Below are positions 6,527-32,000 of a DNA stretch of 32,000 nt, one piece after another. The translations under genes were made by a program, and so were the position numbers. Every line of letters begins with the position of its first letter. Positions within the stretch are counted from its first letter, which is position 1. The notes under the pieces were generated by a model. It was not told where the DNA came from and did no database searches. It was given only the letters and a program-made list of their open reading frames with translations. The stretch comes from Candidatus Methylomirabilis oxygeniifera (GTDB lineage Bacteria; Methylomirabilota; Methylomirabilia; Methylomirabilales; Methylomirabilaceae): the NCBI GenBank assembly GCA_000091165.1, contig FP565575.1, forward strand, positions 1,950,001-1,982,000, in the 5' to 3' direction.

Positions 6527-9232
6527 CTAACTCATTTCCCCGAACCATCCGCGCCGCTCCATCCATTTGGCCAATTCTAGCACGGGCGAAACGGTAGAAG
6601 CCAATACGACGACGATAGCCCAATCCACGAGTGGCAGGCTAACCGTGCTGAACGGTTCATGCAGGAAAGGCGCATAGACAATTAGAACCAACGGCACCAA
6701 CCCCCATACAATCGCCAGATTCAACCACCGATTCGCGAAGGGCTGATGCAACACTGAATGGCGGTCGGAGCGAAAGTTATAGGCCTTGAAGCTCTCAATC
6801 AGCACCAGTGAAACGAACGTCATCGTCATGGCCTTTTCGATGCTCCGGCCGGAGTCGAGCGCCCATACAAAAAAGCCTAGGTTGACTGCCGCCGACCACA
6901 ATCCGCCCACCATCATCACAGTGACGACAGGCCGGGTGAAGATGCCGGTGCGTGGGTTTCGCGGCTTGCGACGCATGAGGTCGGGTTCGGGCGGATCGAC
7001 GGCTAACGCCAATGCGGGCAAGCCATCGGTGGCCAGATTGACGTACAGGATTTGTACGGCAGTCAACGGCAGGGGCAGGCCCAGCAGTGTGGCCCCGGCC
7101 ATCAAGACAATTTCGCCGATGTTGGATGAAAGCAGGTACATCAGATATTTCTTGATGTTGTCGAAGATGCCCCGCCCCTCTTCCACCGCCGCAACAATGG
7201 ACGCAAAGTTGTCGTCGGTCAGCGTCATGGCGGCAGCCTCTTTGGTCACGTCCGTGCCGGTGATGCCCATCGCGATACCGATGTCGGCCTTCTTGAGCGC
7301 GGGCGCGTCATTGACCCCGTCGCCCGTCATCGCAACAATGTGACCTCTCTTTTGCAGCGCCGTGACTACACGCAACTTATGCGCCGGAGAGACGCGAGCG
7401 TAGACGTCGATGTTCTCAACCTCACGTTCGAACTCGGCCTCGCTCATCGCCTCCAGCTCCGCACCGGTTACGACGCGGCCTGTCTTGAGTAATCCCAATT
7501 CACGGGCGACGGCTTGCGCGGTAAGCGGATGGTCACCGGTAATCATGATCGGCTTAATTCCAGCCTGTTCGCACGTTTCGATCGCGGTTTTCGCCTCAGG
7601 ACGCGGCGGGTCGATCATACCCACCAATCCGAGGAAGGTCATATCGCGTTCGGCGTTTTCTGGTGTTGCCCGTGGTTTGGAAGCCACCGCCAGCACCCGC
7701 AATGCCTCGCTTGCCATCCGGCGGGCTGCCTCCGCAATCATCTCCCGACCCTCGGCGTCAAGGGCTGTTACTCCATCTGCCGTCATGTGCCGGACGCACG
7801 AATCAAGGATAATTTCCGGCGCGCCCTTAGCATAGGCCACGACGCCATCCGGCTCGCTGTGCAGCGTCGTCATACGTTTGGTTTCTGAGGTAAAGGGGAT
7901 TTCGTCCACGCGGGGGAATTGCGATTCAAGCTCAGCCTTGTTCAACCCGGCCTTGACGGCGACGACGACTAATGCGCCCTCCGTCGGGTCGCCTTTGACG
8001 TGCCAGCGGCCATTAGCCTCGCTATGAACGATATGCGCATCGGAGGCCAGCGCGACGGCGCGCAAGAGCAGTTTCAGTGGGCTAGAGGGTTCAATGGTGA
8101 GACCCTCGCGCGAGAACCGGCCGTGCGGCTCATAGCCCGCCCCGGAGACATCCAGCATCTGCCAGGCCACACAGATCTTGCGGACCGTCATCTCGTCTTT
8201 CGTCAGCGTGCCGGTCTTGTCTGAGCAGATCACCGACGTGCTGCCGAGCGTCTCGACCGCCTGGAGGCGGCGCATCAGCGCGTGGCGTTTGACCATCCGC
8301 TGCACGCCGATCGCCAGCGAAATCGTGACCACAGCCGGCAGGGCCTCGGGGACAACGGCAACCGCCAGTGCAATACCGAACATCAACATCTCAATGAAGG
8401 GTTGCCCGCGATACAGACCGAGGACAACAATAGCTGCCACCACCACGAGGGCAGCCCACGCCAGTACGCGACCAATCTTATCCAGGTTGGCCTGCAACGG
8501 GGTCCTGCCGGTTTCGACCGTCTGGAGCATTTGGGCAATCTTGCCAAACTCAGTATTCATGCCCGTCGCAACGACAACCGCGCGACCCCGGCCATAGGTC
8601 GCGGCGGTACCGGCGTAGGCCAGATTCTTACGATCGCCCAAGGCTAATAATTCACCATTCGTAAGCGGTGCGGCGTGCTTATCCACCGGAACCGACTCGC
8701 CCGTCAGTGCGGCCTCTTCGATATGCAGATTGACGGCCTCAATCAATCTGACATCGGCGGGAATTTTATCGCCTGCTCGCAAAAGGACGACATCGCCAGG
8801 CACGAGGGCGCGCGCCGGGATTTCAACTTCCTCCCTATCGCGGAGGGCGGTTGCGGTCGGTGCGGCCATTTGGCGCAATACCTCGGTCGCGCGTTCGGCC
8901 CGGTATTCCTGCGCAAAACCTAACAGCACGGCAAACAGCACAATGACGGCAATGGCAATGGCTTCAATTCCATGTCCAAGGAAGGCGGACAGCGCCGTCG
9001 CCACAAGCAGAATGACAATCAGGATATTCTTGAACTGCTCAAAGAAAATCGTCCATGGCGAGATGCGGTGGGCGGCTTGCAGTTCATTCGGCCCATATTC
9101 GGCTAAGCGTTGGGCCGCCTCCGCCCCTGTGAGACCGGTGGGTGTGGATTTCAGGTGAGCAAAGATGGTTTCGTTGGAGAGGGTATGCCAGAGGGTAGGG
9201 TCGAACCCTAGTCGGGATTTAGGAGGGCCCAT
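6527..9232 (-). CDS. P-type cation-transporting ATPase (type II, Ca2+/Mg2+-like)
   Basis: Motifs CSDKTGTLT, TGDHPLTA, MTGDGVNDAPALKKADIG and VPEALPAV are present, with about 10 TM segments. The start is placed at ATG 9230-9232 (MGPPKS...), which overlaps the upstream transporter stop by 14 nt. Confidence 0.9.
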   Translation of the reverse strand: MGPPKSRLGFDPTLWHTLSNETIFAHLKSTPTGLTGAEAAQRLAEYGPNELQAAHRISPWTIFFEQFKNILIVILLVATALSAFLGHGIEAIAIAVIVLFAVLLGFAQEYRAERATEVLRQMAAPTATALRDREEVEIPARALVPGDVVLLRAGDKIPADVRLIEAVNLHIEEAALTGESVPVDKHAAPLTNGELLALGDRKNLAYAGTAATYGRGRAVVVATGMNTEFGKIAQMLQTVETGRTPLQANLDKIGRVLAWAALVVVAAIVVLGLYRGQPFIEMLMFGIALAVAVVPEALPAVVTISLAIGVQRMVKRHALMRRLQAVETLGSTSVICSDKTGTLTKDEMTVRKICVAWQMLDVSGAGYEPHGRFSREGLTIEPSSPLKLLLRAVALASDAHIVHSEANGRWHVKGDPTEGALVVVAVKAGLNKAELESQFPRVDEIPFTSETKRMTTLHSEPDGVVAYAKGAPEIILDSCVRHMTADGVTALDAEGREMIAEAARRMASEALRVLAVASKPRATPENAERDMTFLGLVGMIDPPRPEAKTAIETCEQAGIKPIMITGDHPLTAQAVARELGLLKTGRVVTGAELEAMSEAEFEREVENIDVYARVSPAHKLRVVTALQKRGHIVAMTGDGVNDAPALKKADIGIAMGITGTDVTKEAAAMTLTDDNFASIVAAVEEGRGIFDNIKKYLMYLLSSNIGEIVLMAGATLLGLPLPLTAVQILYVNLATDGLPALALAVDPPEPDLMRRKPRNPRTGIFTRPVVTVMMVGGLWSAAVNLGFFVWALDSGRSIEKAMTMTFVSLVLIESFKAYNFRSDRHSVLHQPFANRWLNLAIVWGLVPLVLIVYAPFLHEPFSTVSLPLVDWAIVVVLASTVSPVLELAKWMERRGWFGEMS

Positions 9233-10040
9233 CGCTCGGCCGATGCTCGCCTCGCAAGTAGGCCACCCAGTACACGCCTGCAACGAGCAGAGTTCCGCCG
9301 ACTACGTTGCCGGCGGTCACAGCAACGAGGTTGCTCGTGATCCCAACGACTGATATCGTCCCGTCGCCGTCCAGCGCAAGTCCGAGGGGCAGGAAGAACC
9401 AGTTGGCGATCGAGTGCTCAAAGCCCATCGCCACGAAGGCGGTAATGGGAAAGAGAATCGCTAGAATCTTGTCGGTCGCGCTGCGGCCGCCCAGGGCAAG
9501 CCACACCGCCAGACAGACCAGCGCGTTACACAGAATGCCGCGCGCGAAGGCCTCGGTCACTGGCAGGTCGGCCTTCGCGCGAGCGATATTGATAGCCGTT
9601 TCGGCGATAGCGCCACCGCCCAGACCGGCAACGTTGGCCCACACAACGAGCAGTACCGTAGCCAGACAGCCGCTCACATTGCCCACGTAGGCCAGGAACC
9701 AGTTGCGCATGACCTCTCGGGTGCCGATCAGTTTGCTCGCCCAAGCCATGGCGATCAGGTTATTCCCGGTAAATAGCTCGGCGCCCGCAATCACGACGAG
9801 GATCAGACCGAGGCAGAAGCTTACGCCGCCGACCAACCGCGTCATACCGAACCCGAGGGTCGATTTAGTTACCGCAACGATGAAAAAGAGCGCGCCGAGC
9901 GAGATAAAGGCGCCGGCCAGGACGGCCAGCACCAGCAGCGTCAGCGCATCGGTACGCGCCTTCGCCACACCGAGGCTTTCGACCTTCCGCGCAATCTCTC
10001 GCGGCGGATAGGCGTCACTGAAGGGCTGGTCTTTATCCAT
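9219..10040 (-). CDS. Formate/nitrite transporter (FNT) family channel
   Basis: 273 aa with six TM segments. The signature motifs AELFTGN and GFEHSIAN are present. The subtype (FocA, NirC or HSC) cannot be told by eye. Confidence 0.9.
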   Translation of the reverse strand: MDKDQPFSDAYPPREIARKVESLGVAKARTDALTLLVLAVLAGAFISLGALFFIVAVTKSTLGFGMTRLVGGVSFCLGLILVVIAGAELFTGNNLIAMAWASKLIGTREVMRNWFLAYVGNVSGCLATVLLVVWANVAGLGGGAIAETAINIARAKADLPVTEAFARGILCNALVCLAVWLALGGRSATDKILAILFPITAFVAMGFEHSIANWFFLPLGLALDGDGTISVVGITSNLVAVTAGNVVGGTLLVAGVYWVAYLRGEHRPSDGPS

Positions 10041-17147: not shown

Positions 17148-18046
17148 GCACCCTCCTTCGCACGCGGCTTGACGATCACCTTATCGGCGAATCGGAAATC
17201 GGCATATTCCAACTCGCGCAAGGCGGTCCCGCGTATCTCAAGGACCCGCACGAATCGATCTAACTGCTGCTGCACACCTTCATCCTCTCCGAAATGTAGG
17301 GAGGGCAATCCCTGGCCGAGCAACACCGTGTAGCTTCCGTCGCCTTTCAGTTGGATCTCCCTCGCCTGCACATCCGGTCCCAACACTCCCTGATAAAACC
17401 GCTGCCATAAACGCGCTCCCTGTTCGACGCGAGCGGGATCGATCCGCTCCCCCGTCCCAATCGGGTGGCCGGCGTACAGCCTCAAAAGCGGAAGGTCCGA
17501 CATCTCCGCCGGTGAGGCCTCCTGCAGGATCAGTCCATCCTCGCTGACAAGGTAGGCGCGATCGGCGACCACCACGGCGTGTGGCGCGCGCTCCGATACG
17601 TGAACTTGCAAGGTTGCCGGAAGGCGCCTGCTCACCCTAGCTGTTCTAATCCAGGGATTTCGCGCAATAGTCTCCGCAAGCGCCCGCAAATCGACTTCGA
17701 AAATGCTCGCATCAGGCGCCAGGCCCACGCTCTCAACAATCGCCGCGGTTGGTATGCGGTGATTGCCTTCCACAAGCAACTCGCTGATCCGGAAATAGCG
17801 CATCGGCATGGAGCGCGGAACCTGCTGCCAGGCCAGCCATCCCAGACCGACCAGCAACATGGAAAGCATAGTCACGCGCGCGCCTCGTCTCAGGCGTACA
17901 CCACGCCGCGAGCCCCTGCGAGTCACGCTCTGGCGCTGCCATCCTGACCCCGTCGATTCCAATCTCAGGAAGCGACGATTCGGACGAAACCCGGCGCTAT
18001 CCTCAACTCGCGATGGGCGAGCCGACGACCTGAATCTCCAGTTCAA
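17144..18046 (-). CDS. ftsQ: Cell division protein FtsQ (POTRA domain)
   Basis: An Arg-rich N-tail is followed by one TM helix (MLSMLLVGLGWLAWQQV) and a POTRA segment (FRISELLVEGNHRIP...LQVHVSER). The ORF-track start is TTG and overlaps murB by 44 nt. The true start may be downstream, for example GTG or ATG near 17870-17925. Confidence 0.8.
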   Translation of the reverse strand: MNWRFRSSARPSRVEDSAGFRPNRRFLRLESTGSGWQRQSVTRRGSRRGVRLRRGARVTMLSMLLVGLGWLAWQQVPRSMPMRYFRISELLVEGNHRIPTAAIVESVGLAPDASIFEVDLRALAETIARNPWIRTARVSRRLPATLQVHVSERAPHAVVVADRAYLVSEDGLILQEASPAEMSDLPLLRLYAGHPIGTGERIDPARVEQGARLWQRFYQGVLGPDVQAREIQLKGDGSYTVLLGQGLPSLHFGEDEGVQQQLDRFVRVLEIRGTALRELEYADFRFADKVIVKPRAKEGA

Positions 18047-23997: not shown

Positions 23998-24007
23998 AGC
24001 CTCTATT

Positions 24008-25090
24008 TCACCTCAATTTCAACGTCGTGAGCGAGAGCAGGGCCAGGATAAAGGAGATGATCCAGAACCTGACAATGATCTTCGGCTCCGCCATCCCGTT
24101 CAACTCGTAGTGATGATGGATCGGCGCCATTCGGAAGATCCGTCGCCCGGTCGTCCGATAGGAGAAGACCTGCAGGATTACTGAGACGGCCTCTGCGACA
24201 AACACCCCTCCGACGATGAGCAGGAGCAGTTCGCTCTTGACCAAGACAGCAAGCGTGGCCACGGCGGCCCCGAGCGCCAACGAGCCGGTGTCGCCCATAA
24301 AAAGCTGCGCGGGATACGCGTTATACCAGAGGAATCCCATAGCCGCCCCAACGATGGCGCCGCCAAACACCGTGAGTTCGGAACTCCCTCTTACAAAGAC
24401 GACCTGCAGGTAGTGAGCGATGCTGGCATGTCCCGCAATGTACGCCAGCACCGTATACGCCGCTGCGGTCATCAGTGTCGGACCGATGGCCAATCCATCC
24501 AGGCCATCGGTCAGGTTCACCGCATTGGACGCGCCGACAATGACCAGCGTGACAAACAGGACATAGCCCCAGCCCAGATCGGGCATCCAGTGTTTGAAGA
24601 ACGGGATAGCCAGCTTTGTGGTGTAGGCATCGACGGGGTTAACGTACAGGCAGAGTCCGACAAGCATACTGGGAATCACCTGCCATAACAGTTTTGTCTT
24701 CGCTGAAAGCCCCTTGCTGTTCTTGGCCACGACCTTTCGGTAGTCGTCGATGAACCCCACCGCTCCCATCCAGACCGTACTGAACAGGGCGAGCCACACG
24801 AATCGGTTGATCAGGTTCGCCCAGAGCAACGTGGCGATAAGTATGGAGGCCAGAATCAGGAGGCCGCCCATCGTGGGCGTCCCGGCCTTCTGCAGATGGC
24901 CTGAGGGACCGTCGTCCCTGATGCTTTGGCCGATTTGCAACGCCTGAAGCCTGCGGATCAACGCAGGCCCCAACAACAGACTGATCAGCAGCGCAGTGAG
25001 GATGGCCCCGGCCGTACGAAAGGTCACGTACCGGAAGACATTTAAGGCTGCGTAGCTTTCGTGCCATGGGTAAAGCAAGTGATACAGCAT
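24008..25090 (-). CDS. mraY: Phospho-N-acetylmuramoyl-pentapeptide transferase
   Basis: A 360-aa polytopic protein with the motifs [13 protein letters not shown] and GDTGSLALG. Confidence 0.95.
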
Positions 25091-25100
25091 ACATCCTCAG

Positions 25101-25197
25101 TTAGAGGGTCTAGGGTGTAAGGTGTAGTTAAATGCAAATGCCCCTCTAATCAGTACGTCTTTCATTCTCTACCCTTCACCCTTTACCCTATACCCTG
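25101..25197. repeat. Heptamer (TAGGGTR) inverted-repeat element in the ddl|mraY spacer
   Basis: Plus-strand units are TAGGGTG TAAGGTG TAGTTAA (25111-25131). Minus-strand units are CAGGGTA TAGGGTA AAGGGTG AAGGGTA (rc of 25170-25197). There is also an inner 8-bp pair, TTAGAGGG (25101-25108) with CCCTCTAA (25142-25149). Confidence 0.8.
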
Positions 25198-25200
25198 CTC

Positions 25201-26511
25201 TTATTTGCCCGGAGTCACCAGATGTCGTCGATCCACCAACGCCTTACCCTCGGTCGATTTGAACTGAGTTGACCGCTTATCCCGATGGGCCTCAAGCGCC
25301 AATTCCACCAGGCGAACGATCAACTCCGCCGGTTTTACCCCGCTTCGCTCCCAGAGGGTAAGGGACAGCGATCCGGGCATAGTATTGATCTCATTGACGT
25401 ACGGCTTCATAGCGGCCGAATCGACCAGGAAATCAACCCGGGAGATCCCGCGCGAATCGATCGACTTGAAGGCCGCTGCCGCTATGGATCGTATCTCATC
25501 AGAAAGCGCCTGGGGAATTCTGGCTGGGATAATACTCGGTGCCAGGTCTGCGCTCCCCGGCTTCTTATTCTCCGGGTACTTATCGCGGTAGCCCACAACC
25601 TCACCCGAGCTGATAAGTTCCTCGCACTCCGAGACGGTCAAGGCGTGATTCCCGATGACGCCACATTGCACCTCGATCCGCTGCTGTACGGCTCGCTCGA
25701 CCAGCACACGACAACTGAAACGCATCGCGCGCTTCGCGAGGCTCAGCGCTTCAACCGCATCATGCGCCACACCGATACCGACACTGGAACCTGCCACGGC
25801 AGGCTTAACCACCACCGGATAGCTCAGTATGCGCTCAAGCGCCTGTACGACAGCCGCCTCATCTTCCAATAGTTCACGCCGGGTCACACCGATCCCCTCG
25901 ACAACGGGAAGGCCTGCGCCCTGGAATACAAGCTTGGAAATAATCTTATCCATTCCCACCGCCGAGGCGGCCACCCCGGCCCCGACATATGGCAGGTTGG
26001 CCAGTTCACACAGACCCTGAATCGTTCCATCCTCGCCATGCGTCCCGTGAATGACCGGGAAGGCCACGTCGATAGTGGGATGGAGCGTCTTACGAAGCCA
26101 GCCCTTCCGTTCCTGTTGCGGCATCAACCCGCCGACCGACGGATCCGGCGACAGAAAGAGCGGCTCAACCCCCGTTGCGTTCACGCCCCGGTCCAGGTTC
26201 TCGAGCTGCGGCGCGTATCGTTCGCGATTCAGCCGCAACTTTTCGGCATCGAGCCTCACTCGCTCATCCGGTCCGGCCATGGCGCCACGCTCCGCCAGCT
26301 TTCGTATTTCAGCATCGACCATCAACAGGTCTCGAACCGCCTCGCCGGTGAGCCACGTACCCTCCGCCGTCAGAAAGATCGGCAGCGTCTCGAACCGATC
26401 CTGCAGCGACAGCAAGACCTCGTAGACCTTGCCCGCGGTCATAATCGAAACCTCGCGCTCTACCGAGCGGCTTCCGAAGATCAGCCCTATGCGTGTCAGG
26501 CTGCTGTTCAT
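25201..26511 (-). CDS. ddl: D-alanine--D-alanine ligase, long form (436 aa)
   Basis: The N-terminus is IGLIFGSRSVEREVSIMTA. HGTHGEDGTIQGL is present, along with the ATP-grasp core and the EINTMPG motif. The omega-loop K-Y (YRDKY) is retained. The ATG overlaps the murF stop as ATGA. Confidence 0.9.
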   Translation of the reverse strand: MNSSLTRIGLIFGSRSVEREVSIMTAGKVYEVLLSLQDRFETLPIFLTAEGTWLTGEAVRDLLMVDAEIRKLAERGAMAGPDERVRLDAEKLRLNRERYAPQLENLDRGVNATGVEPLFLSPDPSVGGLMPQQERKGWLRKTLHPTIDVAFPVIHGTHGEDGTIQGLCELANLPYVGAGVAASAVGMDKIISKLVFQGAGLPVVEGIGVTRRELLEDEAAVVQALERILSYPVVVKPAVAGSSVGIGVAHDAVEALSLAKRAMRFSCRVLVERAVQQRIEVQCGVIGNHALTVSECEELISSGEVVGYRDKYPENKKPGSADLAPSIIPARIPQALSDEIRSIAAAAFKSIDSRGISRVDFLVDSAAMKPYVNEINTMPGSLSLTLWERSGVKPAELIVRLVELALEAHRDKRSTQFKSTEGKALVDRRHLVTPGK

Positions 26512-28214
26512 GCGAACTCCAGGTAGGTATCCGGCAGCCGATTCTCATACAGCAGAACATCGCCTTCGCAGACGATCGCCTTGAGACAGTCGGCTACTTC
26601 GTCCGCGTGTCTGGCTATCAGGACTCGACTTCCGGAAAAACCGGCCTCGCGAAGCCCTTCCTGTAACGGTTGTGTCTGCTGTGGTCCGACCAATACCACA
26701 TAATCGCACACCGCAGCCGCCGCCCGGCCCAAGCGGCGATTCTCCTCTGCCTCGATCTGACCCAGCTCCACCAGTCCCGGCGTGATCAGGATCTTCGAAC
26801 CTCCCTCAAACTGGCTGAGAACCTCCAAGGCCATCTGCGCCCCGCGCGGGTTGGCGTTGGCCACATCGATCAGTTTGATAACCCCGCCTTCTTCGCGAAT
26901 CTCCAGGCGCTTTGGGGCTGGCGCCAACGCCCTGACGCCAGCGGCAATCTCCTCCAGGGGCACGCCGCACTCCAGCGCCGCAGCCGTTGCCCCCAGGATA
27001 TTGCCGATGTTCCAGCCGCCCAGTAGTCTGGTCTCGAACATGGCAGCGCCATGCCCGGTCTCCACGCGAAAGGCCGAACCCTTACTGGAGAGCGTAACAT
27101 CTTTCCCGCGGACACCCAGCGCCCTCTCGTCCTCGCCGATCCCGTACAAGAGCACGCGCCGACCTTCCTGTCTCGCACGCTCGGCCAACCGCAGGCAGAC
27201 CGGATCGTCGGCGTTCACGATCGCCAAGCCGTCCGGTGGAAGCGAATCGATCAGCTCATACTTCGCCTCGGCGATCCGCTCCGGCGTGCCGAATCGCTCG
27301 AGGTGTTGGACCCCAACCGCCGTAAGGATACCGATCCGAGGCCGCAAGACCTCGCACACCTCCCTGATCTCGCCGGGGCCGTACGCCGCCACTTCGACAA
27401 CAAAGAAGCGGTGATCGTCCCGCAGCCCCTCGCGAACGACCCGCACGATACCCATCGTGGTATTGACCCCATCCGGTGTCTTAAAGACCGGGTAGCGTCC
27501 ATGAAGCAACGCGGCGGTAATAAACTTGGTCGTGGTCTTCCCATAGCTCCCCGTGATCCCGATTACCTCTCCGGGATAGCGCCGCATACGCGCCGTTGCC
27601 TGCGCATAGAAACGCCGATTGATCGTCCGCTCCAACGGGGCGAGGCTCGCATTTGCCGCGAGGATCGTACCCGCTGCGACCTCAGACACCGTGAAAAGGC
27701 CGGCGACCAGGCCGATACCAACAAGGAGGGTGCGGGGAGCCACCGTAAGCCGGGACAACACGACCACACTCGACCAGGAGATGACAAGCAGGACCGCCGC
27801 TGCCAGAACGGACGTGACCGCTGCCAGGCGCACCGTTCGGGAGGTCCACTGCAATCGCTGGCTGACCTGAAGCGAGGTATACCGGGTTCTCAACCAGATC
27901 CCGGCGGCCAGCCAGACGATATACAACATGCCTATCCCAACGTACCTGAAGCCGAGAATGGAAGAGAGGGGCAAGCACGCAAAGAGGATTCCGGCCCCCA
28001 GAACTGCCGCCTGGACGAGGACTCCTCGGCCGTCCAGGACGATGCCCCAGTGCCTGACGATCCAGCCCCGCAGTCGCGCGCCGTTGTACCGCTCTAACTG
28101 GGCAAGGTAGATCAGATCCAGATGGCGTGCCACTGCGACCGCCACATACGGCAATAGACCGGTGACGGCCCGACCCGCAAACGAAGACCCGAGCGTCGTA
28201 TCCGACTGCATCAT
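26508..28214 (-). CDS. murF: MurF-like Mur ligase with polytopic membrane N-terminal region
   Basis: The central and C-terminal Mur-ligase domains are present (GITGSYGKTTTK, VGVQHLERFGTPERIAEAKYEL, NADDP). The first ~190 aa carry four hydrophobic helices instead of MurF domain 1. The start is chosen at ATG 28212-28214, an ATGA overlap with the hydrolase stop. A GTG at 28229 is the alternative. Confidence 0.8.
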   Translation of the reverse strand: MMQSDTTLGSSFAGRAVTGLLPYVAVAVARHLDLIYLAQLERYNGARLRGWIVRHWGIVLDGRGVLVQAAVLGAGILFACLPLSSILGFRYVGIGMLYIVWLAAGIWLRTRYTSLQVSQRLQWTSRTVRLAAVTSVLAAAVLLVISWSSVVVLSRLTVAPRTLLVGIGLVAGLFTVSEVAAGTILAANASLAPLERTINRRFYAQATARMRRYPGEVIGITGSYGKTTTKFITAALLHGRYPVFKTPDGVNTTMGIVRVVREGLRDDHRFFVVEVAAYGPGEIREVCEVLRPRIGILTAVGVQHLERFGTPERIAEAKYELIDSLPPDGLAIVNADDPVCLRLAERARQEGRRVLLYGIGEDERALGVRGKDVTLSSKGSAFRVETGHGAAMFETRLLGGWNIGNILGATAAALECGVPLEEIAAGVRALAPAPKRLEIREEGGVIKLIDVANANPRGAQMALEVLSQFEGGSKILITPGLVELGQIEAEENRRLGRAAAAVCDYVVLVGPQQTQPLQEGLREAGFSGSRVLIARHADEVADCLKAIVCEGDVLLYENRLPDTYLEFA

Positions 28215-28978
28215 CGGCCGTCCTGCCACAAGAACTCCCTCGCCACCCGGCTAAAACGGTCCGGCTGATCGACAAACGGGAAATGGCCGGCCCCTTCAAA
28301 CACCTCCAACCGCGAGCCCTGTATGCCGCGCGCCATGATCTCCATCGAAGAAAAAGGTACCTCCTGATCCCGATCTCCCCAGATGATCAGCGTAGGCACG
28401 CGAATAGACGGCAAGATCCCTCGAAGATCTTCGCCGACGACCTTGACCAGCGTAGCGCGCATAGGTCCGGCGTTCCGATAGTCCCGCGATCCTATCCGTC
28501 GATAGAGTTCGGCTACAATCCGCTCGCCCAGCCTACCCCACACAGGTAACGAAAACAGCCGTTTTGCCAGCTTCACGGAGCCGACCTTGACGCGAAACAG
28601 AAGCCCTCGTCTCGGGCGGATCCCCGCACTGGCCGCCAGAATAAGACTTCGAACCCTGTCGGGCCTTTGAGCGGCTAACACAAGCGCGATTCGGCCTCCA
28701 AATGAATGCCCGATCAGGTCGGCCGTCTGGATACCAATGCGATCCATGAACGCCTCGACATAGGACGCATACTCCCATGTCCCCCACGTTGTCGTAGCGG
28801 ATGGGGTCCAGCCAAAACCCGGCAGGTCAAGCGCGTATACCCGGAATCGATCCTCTAACGCCTTGGCAACGACACTCAATGACTCGGCCGAGGTGCCCCA
28901 TCCATGCAGAAGAACCACCGGCCTGCCCTCTCCCCACACAATGAAATGGGTGTCCAGGTCACCAACACGAATCAGCAC
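28211..28978 (-). CDS. Alpha/beta-fold serine hydrolase
   Basis: HGWG forms the oxyanion region, GHSFGG is the nucleophile elbow, GDRDQEV carries the acid, and GAGHFPF carries the His. GTG start. Confidence 0.85.
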   Translation of the reverse strand: MLIRVGDLDTHFIVWGEGRPVVLLHGWGTSAESLSVVAKALEDRFRVYALDLPGFGWTPSATTTWGTWEYASYVEAFMDRIGIQTADLIGHSFGGRIALVLAAQRPDRVRSLILAASAGIRPRRGLLFRVKVGSVKLAKRLFSLPVWGRLGERIVAELYRRIGSRDYRNAGPMRATLVKVVGEDLRGILPSIRVPTLIIWGDRDQEVPFSSMEIMARGIQGSRLEVFEGAGHFPFVDQPDRFSRVAREFLWQDGR

Positions 28979-28991
28979 ACCACCACCAAAT

Positions 28992-29113
28992 ACAGGGTAT
29001 AGGGTATAGGGTGTAGGGTGTAAGAACAGGGTTCAGAGTATTAGGGGGTAGAGTGTAACAAAGAGTTTCTTGGTGTTTTCTTAACTCCATACCCTTTACC
29101 CTACACCCTGTCT
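28992..29113. repeat. Heptamer (TAGGGTR) inverted-repeat element in the murE|hydrolase spacer
   Basis: There are about ten period-7 units on the plus strand from 28993 (CAGGGTA TAGGGTA TAGGGTG TAGGGTG TAAGAAC AGGGTTC AGAGTAT TAGGGGG TAGAGTG ...). Three inverted units lie at 29088-29110 (rc CAGGGTG TAGGGTA AAGGGTA) and overlap the last murE codons. Confidence 0.85.
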
Positions 29114-30615
29114 TTACGGCGGAACCCCAACTCGTGAAGCGCCTCTCGCGCCACCAATCGATCATCAAAGGGGATCGTTCGATCGCGAAGAATCTGGTAG
29201 GTCTCGTGTCCCTTCCCCGCGATCACCACCATGTCACCTCTACCCGCCAGCGAGAGGGCCTCCCGAATTGCCATCCCTCGGTCTAAAATTGTAACATAGC
29301 CCTTACCCTGCCCCCACACCTTTTTCGCCCCGGTTTCGATCTCCTCAATGATCTGATGAGGGTCCTCACCACGAGGATTATCGGATGTGATCACCGTGAA
29401 GTCGGCCAATTCCAGAGCGGCTTCTCCCATGAGCGGACGCTTCCCCCGATCGCGCTCTCCTCCGCATCCAAACAGGACGATCAGGCGTCCTGGACAGCAT
29501 TGCCGCGCCATGCGGAGGACACGTCGCAGCGCGTCCGGGGTATGCGCATAATCAACCATCACACTGAACGCCTGCCCAGTCTCCACCCGCTCACACCGAC
29601 CCGGAACGTGATGGAGCGCTGCGATCCCGTCGGCCACCGCGGACAAATCCGCGCCCAGATGCAACCCTGTAGCGGCAGCCGCCAGGATGTTGGACAGGTT
29701 GTAGCGTCCCAGTAGCGGAGAGCGAATCGCCGTCGTCCCCCACGGCGTCTGCAACCGGCACCGGATTCCGTCCGGCCCCATCTTGACATCAGCAACCGAC
29801 AGATCCGCCGGTCCCTCCACGCTGTAGCTGTAACGCCTCACCCGCGTCGCCCCAAGAAAGAGATCTGCGGCCGGATCATCCAGATTGACGACCGCCGCCT
29901 TCTCCGTCGTTTTTGTTGACCCTACGCCCAATCCCTCAAACATGGACAGCTTTGCGCTCCGATACGCCTCCATGGTGCCATGAAAGTCCAGATGGTCCTG
30001 CGTCAGGTTCGTGAACACGGCCACGTCAAACTCGCAGCCATCAACGCGATGCAAAGCCAGGGCGTGCGATGAGACCTCCATGACCACACTATCGGCGCGC
30101 AGACGCGCCATCCGTTCGAGGAGCGCTTGCAGATCGCAGGATTCCGGTGTGGTCCGCGCCGCCTCCAGCTCCAGCTCGTTACAGCGATACCCGATCGTGC
30201 CGATCAGTCCGACCTGATGCCCCGCGCACCGTAGCACCGACTCGACCAGGTAGGTCGTGGTGGTCTTGCCGTTGGTCCCGGTCACTCCCACCATGGAGAG
30301 ACTGCGCGAGGGATGACCGTAGAACCGACACGCAACGGCAGCAAGGCTTTGCCGGGTATTCGCCACCTTCACCACCGTCCCGCCCTGCAGCGCCGCCTCC
30401 GTCAGATCGGTTCGCTCTACCAGGGCTGCAACAGCGCCTGCTGCCCAGGCGGCCTGAATAAAGTCGTGGCCATCCCGCCTGAACCCTCCGATACATACGA
30501 ACAGATCGCCGGGCTTTACCTGTCTGGAATCGTACCGGATCTCATGAACCTCCAGATCGACGGACCCGCGGAGGACCTGGTGCTCGGTTCCGTTAATTAA
30601 GTCGAAAAGCTGCAT
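29101..30615 (-). CDS. murE: UDP-N-acetylmuramoyl-L-alanyl-D-glutamate--2,6-diaminopimelate ligase
   Basis: GVTGTNGKTTTT is the P-loop. The DNPR motif (TSDNPRGEDP) indicates meso-DAP specificity. The start is set at ATG 30613-30615 (GGAAGGGA upstream). The ORF-track TTG at 30654 is the alternative. Confidence 0.92.
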   Translation of the reverse strand: MQLFDLINGTEHQVLRGSVDLEVHEIRYDSRQVKPGDLFVCIGGFRRDGHDFIQAAWAAGAVAALVERTDLTEAALQGGTVVKVANTRQSLAAVACRFYGHPSRSLSMVGVTGTNGKTTTTYLVESVLRCAGHQVGLIGTIGYRCNELELEAARTTPESCDLQALLERMARLRADSVVMEVSSHALALHRVDGCEFDVAVFTNLTQDHLDFHGTMEAYRSAKLSMFEGLGVGSTKTTEKAAVVNLDDPAADLFLGATRVRRYSYSVEGPADLSVADVKMGPDGIRCRLQTPWGTTAIRSPLLGRYNLSNILAAAATGLHLGADLSAVADGIAALHHVPGRCERVETGQAFSVMVDYAHTPDALRRVLRMARQCCPGRLIVLFGCGGERDRGKRPLMGEAALELADFTVITSDNPRGEDPHQIIEEIETGAKKVWGQGKGYVTILDRGMAIREALSLAGRGDMVVIAGKGHETYQILRDRTIPFDDRLVAREALHELGFRRKDRV

Positions 30616-32000
30616 TGCGGATCCCTTCCGCCAGCCGAAACGGCGCTCGGTCAACTGGGGTCTTCCTAAGGTGCTTCAGGGACTCACGAGCAATCTCCCG
30701 GAACGTCGGCGCCGCAATCGATCCGCCCCAACGGAGTGTGGTCGGCTCATCAATGATGACGATAATAGCCAGTCGAGGCCGCTCTACCGGGACAAACCCG
30801 ACAAACGACGCCACCACCTTATGTCGAGAGTAACGGCCGGTCGCTCGATCTACCTTCTGAGAGGTCCCGGTCTTGCCTGCTACTTCGAATCCCTCCACGG
30901 CAGCGGCCTTTCCCGTTCCTTCCGTCACGACTCCCTTAAGAATAGTCGCAAGGGTTCTCGCGGTATCTTCCGAGATAACTCGTCTGACCTGCATCGGTGC
31001 GTTCTCGAGGACAACTTGGCCGTCCGCCGCAACGATTGATTTCGCAACGTATGGACGAATCAGGTTGCCGCCGTTCGCAATAGCGCTCATCGCCGTTAAC
31101 ATCTGCAGCGGACTGACGGAGATCTCCTGTCCGATGGAGAGCGATGCGAGCGAGAGGGCCGACCACTCCTTCGGACGTCGGATCAAACCGGGCGTCTCTC
31201 CCGGCAGATCGATCTTAGTAAGATTCCCGAACCCGAACCCGCTGATGTAATCGTAGTAGTGGCTTTTGCCTAACCGCTGGCCGACCCTAATAGCCCCCAC
31301 ATTACTGGAGTGAGCCATCACCTCGGCAAACGTGAGGGTCTCAAACCGTTCGTGATCCCGAATCGTGACCCCGCCCACCTCGATGGCGCCCCCCTCAGCG
31401 TTGAACCGGTCTTCTGGCCGCACAAGCCTTTCCTCCAGGGCACCGGCGCCCACGATGGCCTTGAATGCCGACCCCGGCTCGTAGTAATCAGCCACCGCGC
31501 GATTCCGACGGGCGAACGCCGATGCCTCGGCATACACATTAGGGTCAAACGTCGGATAGTTGGCAAGCGCCAGGATCTCGCCGCTGAAAGGATCCATCAC
31601 AATGGCGCTGCCGCTGAGCGCGACGGATTGGCTCACCGCAGCCTCCAGCTCCCGCTCAGTGATATACTGGATCACCTCATCAATCGTCAGATGCAGATCT
31701 GAACCCTGTGCTTCGCCGGCTTCCTCTCTGAAGATCGGCCGACGCTTGGCATCCTGTTGCCGCATGATCCACTTACGCTTACCGGCCAGGTAGATATCGT
31801 ACTGCAGTTCAAGTCCTTCCAGTCCCTGGTCGTCCGTCCCGACAAATCCCAGCAGGTGGGCTGCCTGTTGGGATTTCGGATAAAATCGCTTACCATGCAC
31901 ATCGGATCCGATCCCCTTCAGCATAAGGCGCTCCACTGCCTCCGCCTCCTCAGCAGAGGCTGATCGCTTGAGGTAGACAAACGACTTTCCTGCTCGCAAT
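30593..32000 (-). CDS. ftsI: Peptidoglycan D,D-transpeptidase FtsI / PBP3 (N-terminus outside the window)
   Basis: The transpeptidase motifs are SAFK (SxxK), SSN (SxN) and KTGT. The gene lies upstream of murE. The ORF is open to the right edge of the window. Confidence 0.9.
   Translation of the reverse strand, partial: LRAGKSFVYLKRSASAEEAEAVERLMLKGIGSDVHGKRFYPKSQQAAHLLGFVGTDDQGLEGLELQYDIYLAGKRKWIMRQQDAKRRPIFREEAGEAQGSDLHLTIDEVIQYITERELEAAVSQSVALSGSAIVMDPFSGEILALANYPTFDPNVYAEASAFARRNRAVADYYEPGSAFKAIVGAGALEERLVRPEDRFNAEGGAIEVGGVTIRDHERFETLTFAEVMAHSSNVGAIRVGQRLGKSHYYDYISGFGFGNLTKIDLPGETPGLIRRPKEWSALSLASLSIGQEISVSPLQMLTAMSAIANGGNLIRPYVAKSIVAADGQVVLENAPMQVRRVISEDTARTLATILKGVVTEGTGKAAAVEGFEVAGKTGTSQKVDRATGRYSRHKVVASFVGFVPVERPRLAIIVIIDEPTTLRWGGSIAAPTFREIARESLKHLRKTPVDRAPFRLAEGIRNAAFRLN

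Follow-up and report, generated by a model that had tools for sequence, protein, structure and literature searches.

This study concerns the dcw operon of Candidatus Methylomirabilis oxyfera, which fills 14.7-32 kb of a 32,000-nucleotide (nt) stretch of its genome (hereafter the window, to which all coordinates refer unless another locus is named), with all dcw genes on the minus strand. Three consecutive genes, encoding an α/β hydrolase, a MurF-type ligase and Ddl, lie between murE and mraY, and the spacers on either side of this trio carry inverted arrays of G-rich heptamers. We conclude that the locus probably combines two unrelated things, namely an old, vertically inherited gene trio and copies of a dispersed intergenic repeat at its borders. 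A first-pass annotation had read the same features as a discrete, repeat-bracketed and separately acquired module; the observation behind it is real, but the reading as a discrete, separately acquired module is unsupported.

In the explanation that we prefer, the trio would be what Methylomirabilota specifically carry in the murF slot of the dcw cluster, translationally coupled and passed on with that cluster from a time before the diversification of the phylum. The bracketing sequences would be dispersed intergenic repeats, that is, G-rich heptamer arrays of about four units in convergent inverted orientation, (AGGGTNN)n ... (NNACCCT)n, which may appear, vanish, change length and even change core between close relatives, and settle in operon junctions that tolerate a spacer. 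Such arrays would neither define nor mobilise the trio, nor mark its origin, and the hairpins that they form would be recent colonists.

Conservation of the trio in Methylomirabilota

The window was compared with seven relatives, whose MurF identities to it are 88% (L134), 83% (L135), 80% (L131), 71% (L136), 66% (L132), 60% (L137) and 57% (L133). The order murE-hydrolase-murF-ddl-mraY is kept in all seven, including loci without repeats, so that the synteny comparison proposed together with the module reading turned out against it. In the window, the hydrolase stop and the ligase start share ATGA at 28211-28214, as do the ligase stop and the ddl start at 26508-26511, and both overlaps are as first described. 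The same two junctions are overlaps or gaps of at most 14 nt in the relatives, L131 excepted, and the trio genes are adjacent in seven of seven; the trio as a tightly coupled unit is a part of the earlier interpretation that we retain. The theme of D-Ala-D-Ala addition is also sound, as Ddl and a MurF-type ligase make a sensible pair for synthesis and addition of the dipeptide.

Across the seven relatives, the identities of the trio proteins rise and fall in step with those of MurE, MraY, MurD and FtsW. Within the window, the GC content of the trio, its GC content at third codon positions (GC3) and its codon usage lie inside the range of the other dcw genes. For both the hydrolase and the ligase, the best homologues come from Methylomirabilota/NC10, with identities between 100% and about 55%, and no transposase or integrase open reading frame (ORF) was found inside or beside the trio. 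Because divergence and composition follow the flanking genes, nothing suggests a separate acquisition of the trio. As judged from gene order and protein divergence, the arrangement is old, phylum-wide and vertically inherited.

One lineage-specific insertion was seen in L136 (3731-4233), where a 108-aa ORF lies in the 499-nt gap that separates murE from the hydrolase gene.

Heptamer hairpins in the two spacers

On gene coordinates, the murE-hydrolase spacer measures 122 nt and the ddl-mraY spacer 110 nt, in agreement with the first-pass annotation. The 122-nt length hinges on the GTG start at 28978, and some public gene calls make the hydrolase 235 or 272 aa; since orthologues run 255-256 aa, the GTG start is supported. 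These two had been presented as the only long junctions from ftsI to ftsZ, which stands for the junctions of the trio but is doubtful for murB-ftsQ (17876-18002). Public gene calls put the latter at 127 nt; taking the in-frame ATG at 17941 shortens it to 61 nt, and an overlap requires the TTG at 18046 as the start. It holds no heptamer repeats.

The motif TAGGGTR, reported as inverted in both spacers, was recovered there as inverted arrays whose unit is best given as AGGGTNN, TAGGGTR being the identical repeat in a shifted register. Allowing at most one mismatch, AGGGTNNAGGGT has 11 matches in the 32 kb, every one of them in the two spacers, whereas shuffled sequences are expected to yield 1.6 and none of 100 reaches 11. 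Both spacers have the same layout in mRNA sense, 5'-(AGGGTNN)3-4, a loop and (NNACCCT)n-3', with three to four units per arm. Both fold as long imperfect hairpins (-36.4 and -50.7 kcal/mol, with z of -3.2 and -3.7, respectively), and none of 200 shuffles was as stable.

The element between ddl and mraY is referred to as element A and that between murE and the hydrolase gene as element B. Element B begins within murE, whose last codons and stop codon make up its first heptamer unit (29101-29110). Its 3' side shows a period of 35 (1.9 copies) and a period of 7 (3.7 copies). The inner 3' arm (29026-29058) is the partner in the minimum-free-energy fold, and the outer (ACCCTNN)4 array (28992-29022), 81% complementary to the 5' arm, is an alternative partner. 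A four-tract G3N4 motif lies on the plus strand of the region 28992-29058, and the G-quadruplex evidence for both elements consists of this type of motif, G3N4 repeated four times.

The two hairpins are not terminators. Neither stem is followed by a U-tract (a T-run in the DNA), and a promoter and terminator consensus scan of 24000-30700 found no site in the spacers, with sites being rarer than in shuffled sequence. A scan of the whole window at Rfam gathering thresholds matched no family.

Turnover of the repeats at dcw junctions

Across the dcw junctions of the relatives, the architecture of the arrays is kept and their heptamer sequence is not. In the closest relative, L134, the murE-hydrolase junction is an empty site of 14 nt, with flanks near-identical to those of M. 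oxyfera (in succession, AGACAGGGTGTAG, CAGT and TGGTGGTGGTGTG). Element B of M. oxyfera is therefore an indel of about 108 nt, grown from a heptamer that pre-existed at the murE end, and the spacers keep apart genes that almost adjoin each other in a close relative. The ddl-mraY spacer of L134 measures 39 nt and holds G-rich heptamers only, which form no hairpin.

L135 carries a shorter AGGGTNN hairpin at murE-hydrolase, two G-rich arrays in direct orientation at ddl-mraY, and unrelated heptamers (CTTGGAT and GAAACTN) in its 141-nt mraY-murD spacer (9166-9306). In L136, an AGGGTCT hairpin occupies ddl-mraY and a GGAACCN hairpin occupies mraY-murD (9198-9307). Hairpins of other cores stand at ddl-mraY in L137 (4738-4843; GAACCTC/AGGTTCR) and in L133 (10942-11025; GCTGACN), the last of which has a further array at ftsI-murE. 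In L131, a G-rich array (CAGGGTA TAGGGTG TTGGGTG TAAGGGA; 9684-9720) sits inside the trio at murF-ddl, where a spacer of about 38 nt takes the place of the ATGA overlap. L132 has no heptamers, and its ddl-mraY gap is 1 nt.

The bracketing of the trio by repeats is thus an accident of M. oxyfera, given the empty site in L134, the array inside the trio in L131 and the arrays at other junctions in L133, L135 and L136. The arrays evidently turn over faster than the proteins diverge, and they colonise whichever dcw junction accepts a spacer. Within essential operons, scattered hairpins made of heptamer arrays can pass for the borders of a cassette; here, comparison with a relative of 88% identity dissolves the apparent module. 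The dcw operon of Methylomirabilota offers a natural series for the origin of such arrays and for their effect on polycistronic mRNA.

Dispersal and relation to known repeats

With the pattern (AGGGTNN)3AGGGT, a scan that took one genome for each prokaryotic species returned at least 120 loci (L011-L130) from Cyanobacteriota, Acidobacteriota, Planctomycetota, Bacteroidota, Chloroflexota, Verrucomicrobiota, Patescibacteria and other phyla. The matches listed do not include the M. oxyfera reference genome and so give no copy number for it. Among them, the Methylomirabilota matches outside dcw are L070, at a junction of dprA-like and topA-like genes in the metagenome-assembled genome shared with L136, and L022. 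A search for further copies of the heptamer had been suggested with the module reading; over relatives and many other phyla, it revealed a generic intergenic repeat, which, together with a gene order kept where the repeat is missing, speaks against that reading.

An inverted partner lies within 200 nt in at least 20 of the at least 120 loci. All 19 inverted-pair loci that were inspected abut ORF ends, 16 of them are intergenic, and their folding energies go down to -123 kcal/mol. The polarity 5'-(AGGGTNN)n...(NNACCCT)n-3' was found in 20 of 20 inverted pairs among the genome-scan loci listed, and the reverse polarity was confined to metagenome contigs that consist almost entirely of long heptamer satellites. 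These came from a metagenome scan with a narrower pattern, whose listed matches (L138-L257) are mostly short contigs without taxonomy, several of them such satellites and none informative on M. oxyfera. A strict G-arm-first polarity as a universal rule fails in the satellite-like contigs, and we claim it for compact pairs only. The asymmetry of polarity is not accounted for by slippage alone. Heptamer hairpins of convergent polarity are found in very many bacterial phyla, with fast turnover at operon junctions.

STRR heptamers, of cyanobacteria, is the historical name for such repeats. Rehm et al. (2015; PMC4692102) described heterogeneous G-rich heptamers in Xanthomonas, (GGGANTN)n, and Nostoc, GGGGAYT, mostly in four units, located between aligned ORFs no more than 50 bp away from the stop codon or overlapping it. 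The same study reported 70-75 convergent inverted pairs per Xanthomonas genome, transcription of the repeats, K+-dependent G-quadruplexes formed by them in vitro, and differences in heptamer length and sequence between close relatives (PMC4692102). Another heptamer family was documented by MacGregor (2015; PMC4679880).

The window elements share with the Xanthomonas and Nostoc repeats a 7-nt unit with a G3 tract, other positions being variable, and an array size of about four units. Likewise, they lie between co-directional ORFs near or over the upstream stop codon (element A is 3 nt past the ddl stop and element B over the murE stop), and they form convergent inverted pairs whose predicted folds are stem-loops. 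A G-quadruplex-type motif and the variation in length and sequence among close relatives at one junction are further points in common. They differ in the core, which is AGGGTNN rather than GGGAATC or GGGGAYT, and in the host, which belongs to Methylomirabilota. On these sequence features, we assign the window elements to the known class of G-rich heptameric intergenic repeats as a new sequence variant.

The REP and BIME elements of enterobacteria (malE-malF being an example) are dispersed imperfect palindromes inside operons, transcribed as hairpins able to protect upstream mRNA. The window elements are likewise imperfect palindromes within an operon, and by this analogy a protection of mRNA may be considered for them. 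In contrast to the window elements, REP and BIME contain no heptamer arrays; they possess a consensus of their own and a RAYT transposase dedicated to them, neither of which was seen here, although no search aimed at either was made. The REP consensus has a 5' GTAG, and GTAGGG occurs in the window arrays.

Possible effects and alternative explanations

In M. oxyfera, the hairpins likely break the translational coupling from murE to the hydrolase gene and from ddl to mraY, and the polycistronic transcript would gain stable hairpins or competing G-quadruplex-prone tracts. Like enterobacterial REP hairpins, these could slow 3'→5' decay or give processing sites, and so modestly tune the output of the genes upstream and downstream.

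Several points weigh against an old trio that merely borders on dispersed repeats. In about 50 kb of M. oxyfera DNA (the window, L258 and L259, with about 18 kb beyond the window), no second AGGGTNN hairpin locus was found, and this DNA holds two AGGGTNN sites and two arrays of other cores. We infer the dispersal of AGGGTNN within the M. oxyfera genome from its relatives. The arrays of other cores are (TTCAGCC)4 at dapA-dapB (L259 119-150), 1 nt past the dapA stop, and (CTCAACA)4 (L258 19957-19985), upstream of a conserved HemN-like start; M. oxyfera gene junctions therefore hold several heptamer families. Some heptamer array is present at ddl-mraY in seven of eight loci, the window included, with unrelated cores, and this occupancy could reflect selection for a structured spacer, beyond mere tolerance. 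It is explained equally by a junction that was left without overlap once ddl had moved beside murF. No target-site duplication is visible between the filled and the empty site, and the candidates for the origin of the inverted array are slippage with template switching, or transposition. Finally, an effect of the hairpins at the RNA level, although plausible, is conjectural.

Some of these points would fit hairpins that are selected RNA elements, acting as processing sites or stabilisers that give the trio an mRNA half-life or stoichiometry of its own relative to murE and mraY. Both hairpins are stable and stand exactly at the two trio borders in M. oxyfera, and their positions are identical in ten public contigs (L001-L010, from several samples) with identical Ddl, where the junction is covered. 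The frequent occupation of ddl-mraY and the two alternative 3' arms of element B point in the same direction. However, the closest relative has no murE-hydrolase element and no hairpin at ddl-mraY, and the G-only direct arrays of L131 and L135 cannot make a hairpin. Arrays are found within the trio and at further junctions as well, and their cores are unrelated between lineages. We consider such selection rather unlikely.

It is quite improbable that the G-rich arms act as DNA or RNA G-quadruplexes, pausing RNA polymerase or ribosomes or recruiting a G-quadruplex-binding factor, with the hairpin being incidental. Element A has four G3 tracts with 4-nt loops on the mRNA strand, element B has them on the template strand, comparable heptamer repeats fold in this way in vitro (PMC4692102), and G-only arrays are kept at ddl-mraY in L131, L134 and L135. 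Nevertheless, relatives use cores that are not of the G-quadruplex type (GCTGACN, GAACCTC and GGAACCN) at dcw junctions, the duplex of an inverted pair competes with the quadruplex, and there is no in vivo evidence of quadruplexes for any bacterium of the group.

A horizontally acquired or mobile cassette, with the inverted repeats as its ends or insertion scars, was judged very improbable. The motif is inverted on the two sides of the trio, with 93% complementarity between the arms 25171-25197 and 28993-29019, and the gene content is not canonical for a dcw cluster. Against this stand the gene order kept phylum-wide without repeats, a trio divergence that follows the flanking genes with no compositional signal, and the lack of a transposase or integrase ORF within or beside the trio. 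Moreover, each spacer is a complete, self-contained inverted pair and not one end of a larger element, and the N-terminal domain of MurF, like the orthologues of the hydrolase, is restricted to Methylomirabilota. A cassette borne by a miniature inverted-repeat transposable element or another transposon was considered and rejected, as there is no target-site duplication, each spacer has its own inverted pair and the trio is present in all relatives.

That motifs and placement are coincidental low-complexity sequence has only the small number of sites in its favour and is practically negligible, given the 11 matches against 1.6 expected, the fold z values and an architecture that recurs in many genomes.

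A MurF-type ligase with a membrane domain

The ligase of the trio occupies the murF position of the dcw cluster, and the name murF given to its gene fits the central and C-terminal domains but not the N-terminal domain, which is not the canonical one. The protein carries PF08245 (Mur_ligase_M) and PF02875 (Mur_ligase_C), with a P-loop, and no PF01225. TIGR01143 is its best family, with 218 bits versus 66-79 bits for the MurE, MurC and MurD models; of the 418 positions in the profile, the match spans only 63-402, and the score stays under the cut-off of 288.6. The motif GITGSYGKTTTK is invariant or nearly so in 30 aligned ligase homologues, and the best PDB folds for residues of about 200-568 are MurF structures (TM-score of 0.71). 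Hence, the central and C-terminal domains are present with MurF as the best subfamily, whereas the N-terminal domain of MurF, which binds the UDP-MurNAc moiety, is missing and the full-length cut-off is not reached.

Residues 1-203 are predicted, with high confidence, to form a bundle of six to seven helices (for the whole-protein model, the mean pLDDT is 87 and the pTM 0.80), and simple hydropathy indicates about four hydrophobic segments of the membrane type. The polar motifs RHLDxxYxxQLERY and SLQVSQRLQWTxRxxR in this domain are invariant and kept across the 30 homologues. A Pfam search of the N-terminal 205 aa at E values up to 10 gave no match. An exhaustive HMMER search with the domain returned only 11 cluster representatives among 1.84 billion, of which two are full-length (about 558 aa) and most of the others are short fragments; an 869-aa repetitive match with 12 matched stretches is probably spurious. 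The domain was found only in proteins of the Methylomirabilota type. We found no literature on a transmembrane MurF in NC10 or Rokubacteria and no paper describing the architecture, and the words "hydrolase", "transmembrane" and "Methylomirabil" are absent from a survey of Mur gene arrangements and fusions (PMC10214165).

In every case, the α/β hydrolase precedes the ligase, and the DdlA-like ligase follows it downstream. The hydrolase has an intact GHSFGG nucleophile elbow, and no NCBIfam equivalog reaches its cut-off with it. The best 120 hydrolase homologues are mostly 255-256 aa long, and all the named ones are NC10/Methylomirabilota proteins. Ddl has the expected domains and scores above the curated cut-off, and its best PDB matches are DdlA structures, with residues of about 64-144 left unaligned. 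The protein is enlarged by extra sequence of the N-terminal domain, and a size of 419-436 aa is kept in the relatives. The identical 436-aa Ddl is encoded on 16 public contigs.

MurT, of the lipid II amidotransferase MurT/GatD, is homologous to the Mur ligases, comprises just their central and C-terminal domains and acts on a lipid-linked precursor. The Mur-homologous part of the window ligase likewise consists of the central and C-terminal domains, and MurT structures are among its fold matches (ranks 38, 42 and 49). The window ligase nevertheless resembles MurF much more than MurT (Foldseek E of 6e-28 versus 2e-17), and MurT lacks a membrane domain and differs in its C-terminal domain. Sacculi of Methylomirabilis are lysozyme-sensitive (PMC8671808), and a MurF activity is therefore needed.

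Since the pairing with the hydrolase is conserved and the UDP-binding N-terminal domain has been swapped for a lineage-specific polytopic membrane domain with invariant polar motifs, we tentatively propose, as a possibility that we hold to be unlikely, that Methylomirabilota could add D-Ala-D-Ala at the membrane. The substrate could be a lipid-linked N-acetylmuramic acid (MurNAc)-tripeptide, in the manner of MurT with lipid II, or the ligase could be docked to MraY. If true, this would be a previously undescribed form of the final cytoplasmic reaction in the making of peptidoglycan precursors, and the heptamer hairpins would be irrelevant to it. The whole phylum appears to replace the soluble three-domain MurF by one that has a membrane domain and is coupled to an α/β hydrolase and Ddl, which bears on the universality of the architecture of the cytoplasmic Mur pathway.

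Gene inventory of the locus

The features of the trio, its two neighbours and the heptamer elements are collected in Table 1. The gene order is ftsI, murE, α/β hydrolase, MurF-type ligase, ddl, mraY, murD, ftsW, murG, murC, murB, ftsQ, ftsA, ftsZ.

Table 1. Coordinates of the trio, the flanking genes and the arms of the heptamer elements in the window.
Feature	Position	Strand	Description
murE	29101..30654	-	UDP-MurNAc-L-Ala-D-Glu:meso-DAP ligase; all three Mur-ligase Pfam domains; NF001126 585 bits (cut-off 373)
α/β-fold serine hydrolase	28211..28978	-	255 aa; GTG start; Pfam Abhydrolase_1 1.3e-36
MurF-type Mur ligase	26508..28214	-	568 aa; residues 1-203 putative membrane domain, 204-568 central (ATP-binding) and C-terminal domains
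ddl	25201..26511	-	436 aa; DdlA-like D-Ala-D-Ala ligase; NF002528 295.5 bits (cut-off 262); PF01820 and PF07478
mraY	24008..25090	-	Pfam Glycos_transf_4 and MraY_sig1; first gene past the trio
Element A, 5' arm (mRNA sense)	25168..25198	-	CAGGGTATAGGGTAAAGGGTGAAGGGTAGAG; four G3 tracts (G3N4 x4 in mRNA); starts 3 nt past ddl stop
Element A, 3' arm	25102..25128	-	CTACACCTTACACCCTAGACCCTCTA; C-rich in mRNA; ends about 11 nt ahead of mraY start, beside GAGGA Shine-Dalgarno-like motif
Element B, 5' arm (mRNA sense)	29084..29110	-	CAGGGTGTAGGGTAAAGGGTATGGAGT; G-rich heptamers; overlaps murE stop codon
Element B, 3' arms	28992..29058	-	C-rich in mRNA; tandem duplication of 35-nt unit

The canonical dcw order is mraZ-rsmH-ftsL-ftsI-murE-murF-mraY-murD-ftsW-murG-murC-murB-ddl-ftsQ-ftsA-ftsZ. 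In contrast to it, ddl of the window is not at the site between murB and ftsQ but directly after murF, an α/β hydrolase gene stands between murE and murF, and the membrane domain of MurF replaces the N-terminal domain. The displaced ddl and the hydrolase gene at the head of the trio were correctly recognised in the first-pass annotation. The remaining dcw genes are all there in canonical order. Pairs of ddl and murF also occur in Firmicutes, and, as in those pairs, ddl beside murF couples the synthesis of the dipeptide to its use.

Two observations concern other genes. As a further lineage-specific insertion in the cluster, a STAS-domain gene lies between mraZ and rsmH in L132 (2023-2391) and in L133 (1985-2359). 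In M. oxyfera, a few kb beyond the left end of the window, two toxin-antitoxin-like pairs were found, namely PIN/PhdYeFM (L258 6613-7226) and Gp49/HTH (L258 11409-12076).

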